Shown: piece after piece, positions 8,215 through 11,916 of the stretch
Layout: each line of letters starts with the position of its first letter
Position numbering within the stretch: position 1 is the first letter of the stretch
Made by a program: the position numbers and the translations under genes
Virus genome (UHGV): UHGV-1798460
DNA length: 12,978 bases
Direction: 5' to 3' (one strand)
Origin: a virus
The notes under the pieces: generated by a model
What the model saw: only the letters and a program-made list of their open reading frames with translations
Databases searched by the model: none
Told to the model about the DNA's origin: nothing

Positions 8215-8418
8215 TTACCTCGCTGTAACCTGCTTACTTGTACGATGACCAGCTGCGAAAAGCGCAACTTCTGGCAGGCAGACAGTACCACCTTCAACTT
8301 CCTTCTGAAGCGTTCCGGCAAGCGAAATGGCTCTTGAAACACGTTTACTGGCTCCGTCCATGATTTTCATGAAAGCCATATAGTGCATTGGCTTCTTTCC
8401 TTGCTTGTTTGGCATCAT
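8215..8418 (-). CDS. Small ORF at the position normally held by the N antiterminator; start uncertain and no arginine-rich motif
   Basis: The ORF overlaps the HNH gene 3' end by 74 nt if it starts at 8418. Candidate ATGs at 8388 (weak AAGGAAAG) and 8361. It is the second gene after PL. Confidence 0.3.
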   Translation of the reverse strand: MMPNKQGKKPMHYMAFMKIMDGASKRVSRAISLAGTLQKEVEGGTVCLPEVALFAAGHRTSKQVTAR

Positions 8419-8878
8419 CTAAAAGTTTGAATGAGCCTAGGTATTTTCGTTTTCCATCCACAGTTATCGATGCAACATAAAACCCATGCTCTTTTCTTGC
8501 TTCAACACCTGTAACTCCAGTTGATGAAGATGATTTTAAAGGCATGTTTTTCATATTCTCTTTGAAAGAAACGCTTCTTAAATTGGAGATTCTGTTGTCA
8601 TCCTTAACGCCGTTTATGTGATCAATCACATCAGGCCAGTAGCCATGCACGTAAAGCCATGCAAGTCTGTGAGACTTAAATTTTTTACCTCCAATATTTA
8701 TTCTCAGATAACCCTTGTTGTCAGGTGAGCCAGCCTTTTTACCTGGATACTTCTTGTTCCACGTCAAGGCAGCTCTGTTATCCGCAAACAAATGCTTTGC
8801 TCTCGGCTTCCAATAAAAGTCACCACTCACAGGATTGTAATAAAGAATCTCCCTTACAGACGCTTGAGTAAGATCCAC
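8345..8878 (-). CDS. HNH endonuclease with C-terminal AP2 DNA-binding domain (free-standing homing-endonuclease type)
   Basis: GTG start at 8878 with AGGAGG 5 nt upstream. HNH_3-type motif HRLAWLYVHGYWPDVIDHINGVKDDNRISNLR, followed by an AP2-like GVTGVEARKEHGFYVASITVDGKRKYLGSF. Confidence 0.8.
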   Translation of the reverse strand: MDLTQASVREILYYNPVSGDFYWKPRAKHLFADNRAALTWNKKYPGKKAGSPDNKGYLRINIGGKKFKSHRLAWLYVHGYWPDVIDHINGVKDDNRISNLRSVSFKENMKNMPLKSSSSTGVTGVEARKEHGFYVASITVDGKRKYLGSFKLLDDAKQARKEANALYGFHENHGRSQ

Positions 8879-9016
8879 TTAAACCTCCTAACAAAAACAC
8901 TTCAATAACCCTCCGGTTATGGAAATGTTCTTTTGTAGTGAGCAGCATTGCCGTTCATCCTGAACCCGCCGCGCTCCCGACGCATGGTTTAATGTCGCGC
9001 CGTTCGACATGGCTTA

Positions 9017-9045
9017 ACTATATCCAAAGCTATTATTGCTGTAAA
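9017..9045 (-). promoter_or_regulatory. PL-like early-left promoter (TTTACA-17 nt-TATAGT on the minus strand)
   Basis: Minus-strand -35 TTTACA at 9045-9040 and -10 TATAGT at 9022-9017 with a 17-nt spacer. An operator half-site lies in the spacer. Confidence 0.55.
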
Positions 9046-9052
9046 TAGCTAT
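9026..9052. promoter_or_regulatory. OL operator: AAAGCTATT-N9-AATAGCTAT inverted repeat overlapping PL
   Basis: Read directly; the same half-site recurs in OR. Confidence 0.6.
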
Positions 9053-9146
9053 AGTTATAAAATAACTCCTTTGGTTATTTAGTTATTGATATCTAATGTA
9101 ATTTATTTTTCTTGTATGTGAGATTTGGTGTTTTTTGGGCAATAAA

Positions 9147-9167
9147 AAACCCGCAAAAAGCGGGTTT
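9147..9167 (-). terminator. Rho-independent terminator downstream of the repressor gene
   Basis: Stem AAACCCGC/GCGGGTTT with loop AAAAA; on the minus strand it is followed by TTTATT. Confidence 0.6.
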
Positions 9168-9184
9168 GTTGTGGCGTGATGAGG

Positions 9185-9916
9185 TTAGTAGTCAACTACA
9201 GACCACCAGAAGATTCTTCCGATGATCTCGATATCGCTTAGATTCTTTTCTTCTTGTGGGTATTCCAGTGAGTTAAAGCTTCTAATGCTTACCTTGTCAG
9301 GCCCTGATCGAAAGAGAATCTTAATGCGTTTCCAACCGTTCTCGTTAATGGCGTAAATCTTTCCGTCAACTATTTTCTTATCGTTGGTGTTAACAGCAAC
9401 TGTTGTTCCATCAGGAATGTTTGGCTCCATGCTGTTGCCACGAGCCGGAAAACAAACAACCCCGCTTCCATCACTGTTCGCGCCAACTCTGCGAAGGGTT
9501 GATTTGGAGAAGCGCAACATAAAGCCGTTGTGATCTTCATCAATCACCCGACCATCCCCGCATGCAAACTCAATATCTTTAAGGTAAGGAATTTCAACTT
9601 CATCACCTCTTAAAGGCGTTCCTCCATCCCATGGGTCCAAATATCCCCACGTGCTTTCATGAGGAATAGAAGATTTTGGATTATAAGGTTCAACTCCCTC
9701 ATCACGCATTGGCCCAGTTCCATCGGAAAGCCATTCCGTACGAACTCCAAGCACTTTTGATATTTCAAAAAGTTTGCGCGTATTGCGTGTTTTTCCAGAC
9801 GTAAGTTTCCAGACGCTTGGCTGAGACATGCCAACAGCATTGCCAAGAGAAGCCTGAGTAAACCCAGCCTGATCCATCGCGTATGTAAGCCTTTGAGAAA
9901 AAGTATCTAGTTTCAT
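9185..9916 (-). CDS. cI: CI-like phage repressor (N-terminal HTH, C-terminal S24 LexA-type autopeptidase domain)
   Basis: HTH region QASLGNAVGMSQPSVWKLTSGK; S24 motifs GNSMEP (Ser nucleophile) and a downstream KR. Divergent from cro across an operator region. Confidence 0.8.
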   Translation of the reverse strand: MKLDTFSQRLTYAMDQAGFTQASLGNAVGMSQPSVWKLTSGKTRNTRKLFEISKVLGVRTEWLSDGTGPMRDEGVEPYNPKSSIPHESTWGYLDPWDGGTPLRGDEVEIPYLKDIEFACGDGRVIDEDHNGFMLRFSKSTLRRVGANSDGSGVVCFPARGNSMEPNIPDGTTVAVNTNDKKIVDGKIYAINENGWKRIKILFRSGPDKVSIRSFNSLEYPQEEKNLSDIEIIGRIFWWSVVDY

Positions 9917-9922
9917 TCGTAC

Positions 9923-9951
9923 AACCTATAGCTACAGCTATTATTAGTCAA
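9923..9951 (-). promoter_or_regulatory. Candidate PRM (minus strand TTGACT-17 nt-TAGGTT) giving a near-leaderless repressor mRNA
   Basis: -35 TTGACT at 9951-9946 and weak -10 TAGGTT at 9928-9923; the ATG at 9916 lies about 7 nt downstream. Confidence 0.35.
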
Positions 9952-9957
9952 ATACCT

Positions 9958-9984
9958 AAAGCTATTTACTTTCTGAATAGCTTT
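9958..9984. promoter_or_regulatory. OR operator: perfect inverted repeat AAAGCTATT-N9-AATAGCTTT overlapping PR
   Basis: Read directly. Extra partial half-sites (AGCTATT-like) at 9937-9943 and 9985-9991 suggest a tripartite operator. Confidence 0.6.
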
Positions 9985-9993
9985 GGCTATTAT
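9965..9993 (+). promoter_or_regulatory. PR-like early-right promoter (TTTACT-17 nt-TATTAT)
   Basis: -35 at 9965-9970, -10 at 9988-9993; the operator half-site lies within the spacer, mirroring PL. Confidence 0.5.
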
Positions 9994-10024
9994 CCTGATT
10001 GTGAATTCAGCAGGAGTTATTTTT

Positions 10025-10255
10025 ATGGTCAACAAGGCTATTAAAGCGGCTATTGACTCAGTAGGAAGTCAGCAAAAGTTAGCTGATGCCTGCGGTGTTA
10101 AGCAGCCGTCTGTATGGGCTTGGTTGCATGGGAAGAAAAGGGTATCCGCTGAAAATGCCAAGCGCATTGAAATGGCTACCAATGGAAGCGTCCCTGCATA
10201 CCTGATTCGCCCTGATTTATCCGCTTTGTTCCCCAATCCGAACAAAGCAGCTTAA
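10025..10255 (+). CDS. cro: Cro-like repressor (76 aa)
   Basis: ATG at 10025 with AGGAG upstream. HTH QQKLADACGVKQPSVWAWLHGKK; divergent from the repressor. Confidence 0.75.
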   Translation: MVNKAIKAAIDSVGSQQKLADACGVKQPSVWAWLHGKKRVSAENAKRIEMATNGSVPAYLIRPDLSALFPNPNKAA

Positions 10256-10374
10256 TAAAGCAAATTTTTATACCGAACGGCCCGGTATACGGTCGGGTGC
10301 CCGGCGTGGTCATGGATGACTGTCAATGGTGCACAATAAAAAACCAAATTATTTACCTATGGAAATAGTAAGAA

Positions 10375-10671
10375 ATGGAACAAACAAGTTACAGCAAACT
10401 ATCCCAGCGTGACGTTGATCGCGCAGAAACCGATTTACTCATCAACCTGTCAACGCTTACCCAGCGCGGTCTGGCAAAGATGATTGGCTGTCATGAATCG
10501 AAGATAAGCAGAACGGACTGGAGATTTATTGCTTCGGTCTTGTGTGCTTTCGGAATGGCATCAGACATCAGTCCGATTAGCAGGGCTTTTAAGTATGCGC
10601 TTGATGGACTCACCAATAAAAAACGCCCGGCGGCAACCGAGCGTTCTGAACAAATCCAGATGGAATTTTAA
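10375..10671 (+). CDS. cII: CII transcriptional activator
   Basis: The C-terminus TNKKRPAATERSEQIQMEF matches the lambda CII C-terminus as I recall it; HTH LAKMIGCHESKISR. The start is not well supported by an RBS. Confidence 0.8.
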   Translation: MEQTSYSKLSQRDVDRAETDLLINLSTLTQRGLAKMIGCHESKISRTDWRFIASVLCAFGMASDISPISRAFKYALDGLTNKKRPAATERSEQIQMEF

Positions 10672-10968: not shown

Positions 10969-11916
10969 ATGAGCAATACAGCAAAAATCTACGATTTCAG
11001 CGCCGCACACGAGCGCAGGAGCAACAGGATGGAGAACCAGAAAACTGGTTACATTCCGTTGTACCGGAGCATTCTGAAACAGTCATGGGCGAAAGATGTT
11101 TATCTTCGCACCCTGTGGGAAAACCTTCTCCTGAATGCCGCCAGAAAGCCATACAAAGCGAATTTCAAAGGTCATGAATGGCATCTGCAACCCGGTCAAC
11201 TGGTTGTGACAGCAGCTGATTTAGGTCTTCAGTTATGCGACAGACATGGCAAGCCAGCAAGCCGTGATCAGGTTGAGCGGATGCTTCAGGTTTTTGTGAA
11301 AGAGGGGATGATCTCCATTGATGGAGAGAAGCAAAAAGGTCGTGTGATAACCATCACAAATTACCATGAATATGCTCAAAAAATGGACAATTCACCCGCA
11401 CATGAAGCCGCACAAACAACCGCACATGATGCCGCACATGATGAAGCCAGTAATGGCGCGGCATTCAGCGCACATGCCGCACATGAAAGCGCACATGAAG
11501 CCGCACAAACAACCGCACATCATGAACAAGAAGGTATTAACAAGAATATAAATAATACCCCCCTACCCCCCAATGGGGGAGGCGATGGGCAGGTTAAACC
11601 TGAACGTCGCAAGGCAGAACGAATCGACTACGAATCCTTCCTGAACGCCTACAACACCGAAGTCGGTGACAGACTTCCACACGCTGTTGCGGTCAACGAG
11701 AAACGAAAACGCCGCCTGAAGAAAATCATTCCGCAACTGAAAACGCCAAACGTGGACGGTTTCAGAGCGTATGTCAGGGCGTTTGTGCATCAGGCCAAGC
11801 CGTTTTACTTCGGAGACAACGACACTGGCTGGACGGCAGATTTTGATTACCTGCTGAGGGAAGATTCGTTAACGGGAGTACGGGAAGGGAAGTTTGCAGA
11901 CAGGGGGATTGCATGA
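10969..11916 (+). CDS. Replication initiator, lambda O-like (N-terminal iteron-binding domain, repetitive linker, C-terminal domain)
   Basis: N-terminus [11 protein letters not shown] resembles lambda O MTNTAKILNFG. The gene contains the tandem repeat and AT-rich tract expected of an embedded origin. Its stop overlaps the helicase start (ATGA). Confidence 0.7.
11396..11524. repeat. Iteron-like 12-bp tandem repeats (CCGCACATGANG family), two blocks, inside the O-like gene; candidate replication origin
   Basis: Units read at 11396, 11408, 11420, 11432 and 11477, 11489, 11501, 11513. A 30-nt segment gcacatgaagccgcacaaacaaccgcacat occurs twice (11398-11427 and 11490-11519). Confidence 0.55.
11527..11580. 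promoter_or_regulatory. AT-rich tract plus C/G palindrome next to the iterons; candidate DNA-unwinding element of the origin
   Basis: aaggtattaacaagaatataaataata followed by cccccctaccccccaatggggga. Confidence 0.4.

Follow-up and report, generated by a model that had tools for sequence, protein, structure and literature searches.

The DNA analysed here, referred to below as the window, is a 12,978 bp stretch in which a cI repressor gene (9185-9916, minus strand; 243 aa, with HTH_3 and Peptidase_S24 domains) and a cro gene (10025-10255, plus strand; 76 aa) diverge from a 108 bp intergenic region, with cII and O coming after cro. The cro product has a YdaS/P22_Cro-type HTH with the recognition helix KQPSVWAW, and the gene is provided with a Shine-Dalgarno sequence, AGGAG, at 10012-10016. 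This organization supports an earlier note on the same DNA, which had described a lambdoid prophage immunity region. That note had also given the repressor gene its own terminator before PL, and an intrinsic terminator (9167-9147, minus strand; an 8 bp stem with five GC pairs, then a T run) is indeed predicted just past the cI stop codon. It was right, too, in calling the region compact and free of rexAB-like genes: the distance from the cI stop codon to OL is no more than about 125 bp, and there is thus no rex-like gene between cI and PL.

The immunity cassette is bounded on the left by an HK022-type putL antiterminator RNA (8940-9002, minus strand), just downstream of PL, and on the right by its putR counterpart (10278-10334, plus strand), downstream of cro; both segments align almost unchanged to the annotated putL and putR of O276 and HK022. 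An Rfam scan of 8700-10500 gave sub-threshold chance matches only, Rfam having no put RNA family. The first ORF to the left of putL is an HNH endonuclease gene rather than nun.

Promoters and predicted operators

A promoter consensus scan predicts PR on the plus strand (-35 TTTACT at 9965-9970, a 17 nt spacer and -10 TATTAT at 9988-9993) and PL on the minus strand (-35 TTTACA at 9045-9040, a 17 nt spacer and -10 TATAGT at 9022-9017). The TTTAC of the PR -35 and the PR -10 are invariant or nearly so among relatives, and both PL hexamers align with the annotated PL hexamers of HK022 and O276. A divergent PRM can be read from the sequence at 9923-9951 (minus strand; -35 TTGACT at 9951-9946, 17 nt, -10 TAGGTT at 9928-9923); the scan of the window did not detect it, because its -10 is weak. 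The reverse complement of the TTGA in its -35, TCAA, is highly conserved in relatives beside OR2, and the distance of 6 nt from the -10 to the cI ATG implies that the cI mRNA is probably leaderless or nearly so.

Several similar palindromes overlap these predicted hexamers, three at OR and two at OL, with no others in the window at the sequence level, and these five 14-16 bp palindromes are the predicted repressor sites. The operator unit is a 14 bp core, ATAGC-N4-GCTAT (16 bp with the flanking A/T), repeated at 24-25 bp from centre to centre; the pattern AATAGC-N4-GCTATT occurs with at most one mismatch at 9927, 9951 and 9976, and with two mismatches at 9019 and 9044. OR1 (AATAGCTTTGGCTATT, AATAGC-TTTG-GCTATT; 9976-9991, core 9977-9990) is a perfect match with a matrix score of 22.9, is conserved in 14 relatives, and covers most of the PR spacer as well as bases 1-4 of the PR -10. 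The same score is reached by OR2 (AATACC-TAAA-GCTATT; 9951-9966; one mismatch), whose distance from OR1 is 25 bp at 13 of the 15 loci; on its right it shares 2 bp with the PR -35, on its left it adjoins the putative PRM -35, and its centre is at about -42 from the cI ATG. OR3 (TATAGCTACAGCTATT, TATAGC-TACA-GCTATT; 9927-9942; one mismatch, score 19.8) overlaps the PRM spacer and -10; the relatives have here an ATAGC-N4-GCTAT palindrome that stands by itself, with an information content of about 0 bits at its four central positions over the 15 loci, and in 13 of these OR3 lies 11-13 nt from the cI ATG.

The two OL sites are read on the minus strand. OL1 (AATAGC-TTTG-GATATA; 9019-9034; two mismatches) extends over the PL spacer and into the -10, mirroring the arrangement of OR1 at PR, while OL2 (TATAAC-TATA-GCTATT; 9044-9059; two mismatches, score 21.9) overlaps the PL -35 by 2 bp and is 25 bp from OL1, as in relatives. 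A matrix of 20 columns was derived exclusively from the OR sites of other genera; applied to all 12,978 bp, it gave scores of 17.9-22.9 at exactly these five sites; the next best score was 8.6 and the maximum of 200 shuffles was 17.4, the lowest of the five, OL1 at 17.9, being just above this maximum.

Two further candidates were considered. A third OL site at 9086-9105 (TTGATATCTAATGTAATTTA) is left uncertain, its matrix score of 6.9 falling well within what shuffles give; in some relatives a weak third OL site, scoring 14-15, lies 20-21 or 44 bp beyond OL2. Over the ribosome-binding site of cro, a possible fourth site (TTCAGCAGGAGTTATT, 10006-10021) has three mismatches in the window and is not claimed; its equivalent in several relatives, AAAGCAGGAGCTAT, has one mismatch and scores of 11-14, below the 95% shuffle level.

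The earlier note had placed a single 27 bp operator on each side. The repeats themselves are present: an inverted repeat of the form AAAGCTATT-N9-AATAGCTTT occurs without mismatch at 9958-9984 (AAAGCTATTTACTTTCTGAATAGCTTT) and with one mismatch at 9026-9052 (AAAGCTATTATTGCTGTAAATAGCTAT), and these are the only two matches in the whole window at up to three mismatches, against 0.01 expected from shuffles. The partial half-sites said to flank OR are there as well (AGCTATT/GCTATT, at 9936-9942 and 9986-9991). The comparative data speak against one 27 bp operator per side, however, and each repeat is better read as the right half of O2 joined to the left half of O1, that is, two neighbouring operators face to face, so that the 27 bp inverted repeats would be a geometric by-product of two adjacent palindromes. 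Promoter occlusion, by contrast, is supported, in that the operators overlap PL and PR and bound repressor would keep RNA polymerase off them. The 27 bp element itself does not sit inside the 17 nt spacer: at PR it extends from 7 bp upstream of the -35, across the -35, to 3 bp before the end of the spacer.

Repressor, Cro and the covariation of helix and half-site

The N-terminal domain of cI is predicted to have a 434-repressor-like five-helix fold. An AF2 model places helices at residues 6-17, 21-28, 32-39, 49-56 and 60-65, the recognition helix being residues 32-39 (QPSVWKLT). Residues 6-68 match the 434 repressor (PDB 2r63/1per) with E values of 2.7e-8 to 5e-8 in a phmmer search of the PDB, and in Foldseek comparisons the model superposes on 434 Cro (2cro) with a TM score of 0.93 and an rmsd of 0.9 Å, with 1pra matched at 38% identity. 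The C-terminal part of the protein matches Peptidase_S24 (E 3.7e-15), and comparison of the modelled structure relates its fold to the C-terminal domains of LexA and lambda cI; G-N-S162-M-E-P and the Lys residues of W-K-R-I-K are invariant or nearly so. The segment FACGDGRV is identical to that in phi80 cI, whose product is reportedly cut at Cys-Gly; a literature search for this phi80 cleavage site yielded no usable confirmation. The helix motif QPSVW is common to cI and Cro, both in the window and in each of the 14 relatives, and Cro should bind the same operator sites.

Fourteen loci of other genera encode an identical cI helix (QPSVWKL), with three such sites, at 24-25 bp spacing, upstream of cI. 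In these sites the outer 5+5 bases are kept while the central four vary freely, information peaking at A1 T2 A3 g4 C5 and the mirror positions (profile A T A g C y w w r G c T A T). Two strong OL sites 25 bp apart are also found at QPSVWKL loci, including those with 800-1,450 bp between OL and cI. The relatives are phylogenetically related, and these conservation counts are thus not independent. Relatives with other recognition helices keep the 5-N4-5 geometry and the three-site layout while the half-site changes: ATCGC accompanies QSSVNKL, ATAAC accompanies QPAIQKM, ACAAC accompanies QAAIQK, ATCTC/GTGAT accompanies QSMIWKL and ATTAG accompanies QGTIAQ. In a reciprocal test, in which 38 viral contigs were found by the DNA pattern only, a QPSVWKL cI and a QPSVW Cro were encoded nearby in all 38.

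Opinion could go either way on a broader proposal, in which the window would be one member of a very large 434/phi80-like cI-Cro family of the Gammaproteobacteria and Betaproteobacteria, with one rigid geometry (A-N3-C-N4-G-N3-T), three OR sites some 24-25 bp apart, and helix residues 2-3 and 5-6 changing with half-site bases 2-4. The proposed pairs are QPS.W with ATAGC, QSS.N with ATCGC, QPA.Q with ATAAC, QAA.Q with ACAAC, QSM.W with ATCTC/ATCAC and QGT.A with ATTAG. Should this hold as a predictive code, sequence alone would suffice to assign uncharacterised prophages to immunity groups, and orthogonal sets of repressor-operator pairs could be devised.

These comparisons bear directly on the choice between the 14 bp sites and the long operator of the earlier note, in which each control region would hold one operator with 9 bp half-sites AAAGCTATT/AATAGCTTT and a 9 bp spacer, occupied by one repressor dimer or tetramer. 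Much about the repeats is attractive, in that their symmetry (perfect at OR, one mismatch at OL) is far beyond chance, the inner-facing halves are the best conserved in the window and in several relatives, and the three extra bases, AAA/TTT, are common to OL and OR. These three bases, however, which extend the half-site to 9 bp, fall in the variable operator centre; they are not conserved in the relatives L011, L014, L016, L017, L027, L028 and L040, which have the same recognition helix, examples being AATAGTTAA (L011, L014), AATAGCTAA (L016), AATAGCCAT (L027) and AATATCTAT (L040). Moreover, OR3 is a conserved stand-alone 14 bp palindrome with no 27 bp partner, and a long operator gives no account of the conserved outer halves or of the fixed three-site, 24-25 bp layout across specificity classes. 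It would also set the half-site centres 18 bp apart, on different helix faces, unlike every solved 434-family complex, whereas the 14 bp reading puts them at a distance of 9-10 bp, close to one helical turn, which is what a dimeric HTH requires; the closest solved relatives of the repressor bind 14 bp sites. On these comparative grounds and on helical geometry we reject the 27 bp operator, which we consider very improbable.

A quite different objection is that the ATAGC/GCTAT motifs, though real, are recognised mainly by Cro alone or by a host factor, or that they are largely promoter architecture (UP, -35, -10) shared by descent. Several half-sites do overlap hexamers (the -35 in the case of GCTATTTAC, the -10 in that of GCTATTAT), and since OR1 and OL1 extend with their outer halves into the -10 of PR and of PL, respectively, and OR2 adjoins the PRM -35 with its left half, part of the conservation could be promoter constraint. 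Cro carries the same helix as cI, so that Cro sites and cI sites cannot be separated on sequence alone. Yet across the family the half-site changes with the cI recognition helix while the hexamers stay sigma-70-like, OR3 and the OL sites keep their palindromes without involvement of the PR or PL -35 and -10, and each of the 38 contigs found by the DNA pattern had the matching cI helix, all of which makes this explanation as hard to credit as the 27 bp operator.

The proposed switch and its distribution

We think it very likely that the region works as a bistable switch of the lambda/434 type, with cI dimers on 14 bp ATAGC-N4-GCTAT operators, three at OR and two at OL. In such a switch dimers of the 243 aa repressor would bind these sites, presumably cooperatively, through the 434-like helix-turn-helix, reading the outer 5+5 bases directly and the central 4 indirectly. 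Occupancy of O1 would cover the spacer and -10 of PR and PL and that of O2 the -35, whereby the lytic promoters would be shut. Bound at OR2, beside the -35 of the weak divergent PRM, cI could stimulate its own transcription, probably as a leaderless mRNA, and OR3, which overlaps PRM, could shut that promoter off at high cI or upon binding of Cro, which would use the same sites as cI. The LexA-like C-terminal domain suggests that the repressor would be cleavable during the SOS response.

Of 5,426 complete E. coli genomes, 42 have this immunity type, as do two sequenced phages, APC_JM3.2 and PDP110P2. The half-site is not peculiar to this prophage, as the earlier note had implied in having it define the specificity of this one element: prophages with identical recognition helix and operators of this type are found in at least 12 other enterobacterial genera. 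A tblastn search of 50,697 phage records with the cI N-terminal domain yielded no characterised phage with more than 60% identity, the next matches reaching about 50-58%, and full-text searches with the operator strings and both phage names returned no description of these operators, only the genome announcement of APC_JM3.2. Judged from its sequence, then, the region is an ordinary lambda/434-style prophage immunity switch with a specificity that appears not to have been characterised previously, a new specificity of a well-known kind.

While this changes none of the concepts of how lambdoid switches work, it does provide an operator map for a fairly common immunity type that had never been characterised before, and footprinting, reporter fusions and reuse in synthetic biology should be designed against the 14-16 bp sites and not the 27 bp element. 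It also offers a further clean example of modular exchange of immunity cassettes, a 434/phi80-type cI-cro pair lying exactly between HK022-type putL and putR.

Comparison with known phages

The flanks of the cassette are those of HK022, with sequences about 94% identical to HK022 putL and putR and with PL hexamers that align with those of HK022 PL, whereas cI, cro and all operators have been replaced; HK022 Cro is 28% identical over 50 residues. Lambda has three operators between back-to-back PR and PRM, with O1 and O2 over the lytic promoter and O2 near -42 of PRM; its operators are 17 bp long and about 24 bp apart, its cI transcript has a leaderless start, and its repressor is SOS-cleavable. 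The window matches this logic and geometry, and its cI start is probably leaderless too. It differs from lambda in its 14-16 bp operators, in a cI N-terminal domain that lacks the lambda N-terminal arm and is closer to that of 434, in the absence of rexAB, and in having only about 0.9 kb from OL to OR.

Phi80 cI, to which Erwinia RdgA and Pseudomonas PrtR are related, has the same domain order and size as the repressor of the window and is 51% identical to it overall, mostly in the linker and the S24 domain, with LKDIEFACGDGRV, LRRVGANSDGSGV and G-[ND]-SMEP common to both. The N-terminal DNA-binding domain has diverged, however, with about one-quarter of the first 60 residues identical; phi80 O-R and O-L carry different repeats, of the AATCAACA/TGTTGATT type, with no ATAGC-N4-GCTAT sites in either sequence, and phi80 has extra genes between cI and OL. 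The window thus does not share the DNA-binding domain and operators that make up the phi80 cI immunity type.

A further close parallel is 434, whose operators are 14 bp long, with the outer 5+5 bases contacted and the inner 4 not (PMC1636474). The window likewise has 14 bp operators with conserved outer 5+5 bases, a variable, A/T-rich inner 4 and an invariant A at position 1, a helix motif common to cI and Cro, and a tripartite OR between divergent cI and cro. An alignment of the cI N-terminal domain with that of 434 spans 62 residues (E 2.7e-8), the Gln that opens the recognition helix being conserved, and the predicted fold of this domain superposes on both 434 Cro and the 434 repressor. The differences lie in the half-site, ATAGC as opposed to ACAAg in 434 (operators ACAA-N6-TTGT; specificity half-site ACAA), in the helix, QPSVWK as opposed to QQSIEQ, in two strong OL sites where 434 has three, in the operator spacing of 24-25 bp, and in a Cro that belongs to the YdaS/P22_Cro family and is no close homologue of 434 Cro. 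On this reading of its sequence the switch would work like that of 434 but differ from it in immunity type, and the two are expected to be heteroimmune.

Predicted operators of the immunity region

The region at 9017-9993 is part of the early control region of a lambdoid prophage. The cI repressor gene (9185-9916, minus strand) encodes a 243 aa protein with HTH_3 and Peptidase_S24 domains, and cro (start 10025, plus strand, with AGGAG upstream) a 76 aa protein with a YdaS/P22_Cro-type helix-turn-helix; cII (10375-10671) and a replication O gene (10969-11916) lie downstream of cro. A consensus scan recovered both promoters proposed in the earlier note, PR at 9965-9993 (plus strand; TTTACT-17-TATTAT) and PL at 9045-9017 (minus strand; TTTACA-17-TATAGT), as well as the intrinsic terminator (9167-9147, minus strand) between the cI stop codon and PL.

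The two 27 bp inverted repeats described in that note, at exactly 9958-9984 (OR) and 9026-9052 (OL), are indeed there, and the window has no other match at three or fewer mismatches (0.01 matches expected). The observation is thus confirmed, and the region and its regulatory logic stand, but the operator unit and the number of operators need to be revised. Each 27 bp repeat can be seen as the junction between two neighbouring short palindromes, made up of the right half of the first and the left half of the second. Compared with AATAGC-N4-GCTATT, predicted OR1 (9976-9991) is a perfect match, OR2 (9951-9966) and OR3 (9927-9942) have one mismatch each, and OL1 (9019-9034) and OL2 (9044-9059) have two each; the three OR sites are spaced by 24 and 25 bp and the two OL sites by 25 bp. 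Half-site centres then lie 9-10 bp apart, on one helix face, in a 14 bp reading, versus 18 bp in the 27 bp reading. With this parse PL and PR become mirror images, the transcribed strand of both being GCTATTTAC-N7-AATAGCTTTGG-(A/C)TAT; O1 (OR1 or OL1) covers the spacer and -10, and O2 (OR2 or OL2) touches the -35. The operator had been placed within the 17 nt promoter spacer; the 27 bp element does end inside the spacer but is not confined to it, since at PR it begins upstream of the -35.

Relatives of this cI number in the hundreds in the Enterobacterales. A scan of one genome per species, using an alignment of N-terminal domains as query, gave 70 loci, 14 of which encode a cI whose recognition helix is likewise QPSVWKL, in Pseudocitrobacter, Leminorella, Symbiopectobacterium, Serratia, Sodalis, Edwardsiella, Enterobacter, Pantoea, Pluralibacter, 'Martelella', Photorhabdus, Providencia and Morganella. 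All 14 have three ATAGC-N4-GCTAT sites upstream of cI, spaced by 24-25 bp (one by 23). At OL they have a pair of strong sites separated by 25 bp; the pair is 107-200 bp away from cI in compact loci and 830-1,450 bp away where cargo genes intervene. A position matrix built from the relatives' sites, with the window excluded, has its information in A1 T2 A3 g4 C5 and the mirror image, with a weak Y-W-W-R preference at the centre. Over the whole 12,978 bp window it matches exactly the five sites (17.9-22.9), the next best score being 8.6 and the maximum of 200 shuffles 17.4; pattern and matrix give three predicted operators at OR and two at OL rather than the one per side claimed earlier. The proposed 9-N9-9 unit is contradicted by the replacement of AAA/TTT, which extends the half-site to nine bases, in seven same-helix relatives (loci L011, L014, L016, L017, L027, L028 and L040), and by OR3, which in column-by-column conservation is a free-standing palindrome with no 27 bp partner and about zero information in its four central columns.

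A fourth operator-like sequence lies at 10006-10021, over the cro ribosome-binding site and about 30 bp downstream of OR1; it is TCAGCAGGAGTTAT in the window (three mismatches) and AAAGCAGGAGCTAT in several relatives (one mismatch), and is found in loci L005, L011, L012, L014, L016, L017, L028 and L040. Because it scores below the shuffle threshold, it may simply be a Shine-Dalgarno sequence with an A/T-rich spacer. A possible degenerate OL3 (9086-9105) is located 44 bp beyond OL2 and scores 6.9; locus L082 has a better one (14.8) at the same 44 bp offset, and in L012 and L028 an OL3-like site lies 20-21 bp beyond OL2.

Predicted operator recognition by cI and Cro

Loci with other helices keep the geometry and three-site layout, with the half-site changed. 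While QPSVWKL is associated with ATAGC, QSSVNKL is found with ATCGC, QPAIQKM with ATAAC, QAAIQK with ACAAC, QSMIWKL with ATCTC/GTGAT, QPTIWRL with ATACG or ATAGC, and QGTIAQ with ATTAG; about 60 related cI loci (L005-L074) all keep the A-N3-C-N4-G-N3-T geometry, with three sites spaced by about 24-25 bp. This family-wide covariation, the most interesting by-product of the analysis, looks like a readable recognition code. In a reciprocal test, the DNA-only pattern GCTATTTAC-N7-ATAGC-N4-GCTAT matched 38 IMG/VR contigs, in 37 of which a QPSVWKL cI and a QPSVW Cro are encoded within 1.5 kb; in the other the match is the OL copy, and a same-helix cI is 2.5 kb away. The recognition motif is common to cI (SQPSVWKL) and Cro (KQPSVWAW) in the window and in all 14 relatives, as would be expected if both read the same operators.

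Residues 6-68 of cI align with the DNA-binding domain of 434 repressor (E 2.7e-8), and the Gln that opens the recognition helix is conserved. The AlphaFold2-predicted structure (mean pLDDT 82.6), with five helices between residues 6 and 65, superposes on 434 Cro (TM 0.93, rmsd 0.9 Å) and on 434 repressor, and its C-terminal domain superposes on those of LexA and lambda cI. In the 434 complex Gln28 reads the adenine at operator position 1, and by analogy the family-wide invariant A1 and invariant Gln would fit such a reading. The operators of 434 are 14 bp long and are contacted at the outer 5+5 bases but not at the inner four (PMC1636474), a profile shared by the predicted sites here. The cI of phi80 is 51% identical; the identity is nearly confined to the linker and C-terminal domain and includes FACGDGRV and G-[ND]-SMEP; SOS-inducible self-cleavage is therefore likely.

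Proposed promoter control

It follows directly from the coordinates that cI dimers on O1 and O2 would block the -35, the -10 and the spacer between them in both PR and PL. The cI ATG is preceded on the minus strand by TTGACT (9951-9946), 17 nt, TAGGTT (9928-9923) and then six bases, with no Shine-Dalgarno sequence between TAGGTT and the ATG. The TTGA of this -35 is highly conserved, and in 13 of 15 loci OR3 lies a constant 11-13 nt from the ATG. We infer a weak divergent PRM, and because it ends 6 nt from the ATG without a Shine-Dalgarno sequence, a leaderless cI mRNA is suggested, as in lambda. PRM would be activated from OR2, centred near -42, and OR3 would serve for autorepression and for Cro; by analogy alone, cooperativity is plausible, as is looping between OL and OR over about 0.9 kb.

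The cassette and its distribution

The cassette is bounded by HK022-type antiterminator RNA sequences, putL (8940-9002, minus strand) and putR (10278-10334, plus strand); Rfam contains no put RNA family. Homology to HK022/O276 ends at about 9014, only a few bases from where PL starts, and picks up again at about 10266, just after cro, so the cI-cro immunity module has been exchanged as a unit, in typical lambdoid mosaicism; the PL hexamers of HK022 align with the predicted ones. An HNH endonuclease (PF13392, E 2.8e-15) is encoded by the first ORF beyond PL and putL (8345-8878, minus strand), in the place of N in lambda and of nun in HK022; the arrangement is the same in Salmonella phage UPF_BP1. 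Loci L008, L011, L014, L016 and L082 have 0.8-2.5 kb of additional DNA between cI and OL, an interval that in the window holds only the terminator; this is the position of rexAB in lambda, so these inserts are candidate lysogen-expressed cargo genes.

Phages APC_JM3.2 and PDP110P2 have immunity regions about 99% identical to this one, which is also present in 42 of 5,426 complete E. coli genomes, two matches being counted as plasmid-borne. Two small E. coli records match the immunity region (NZ_LT599830.1, 41,305 bp; NZ_CP158430.1, 178,896 bp) and another the wider window (NZ_CP063485.1, 39,096 bp); phage-plasmids, excised or extrachromosomal phage and assembly artefacts are all possible explanations. 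We found no characterised phage whose cI N-terminal domain is more than 60% identical, and neither the operator strings nor an account of this switch in the literature searched. The finding is ordinary: the kind of system is thoroughly known, and this is a new immunity specificity of that kind.
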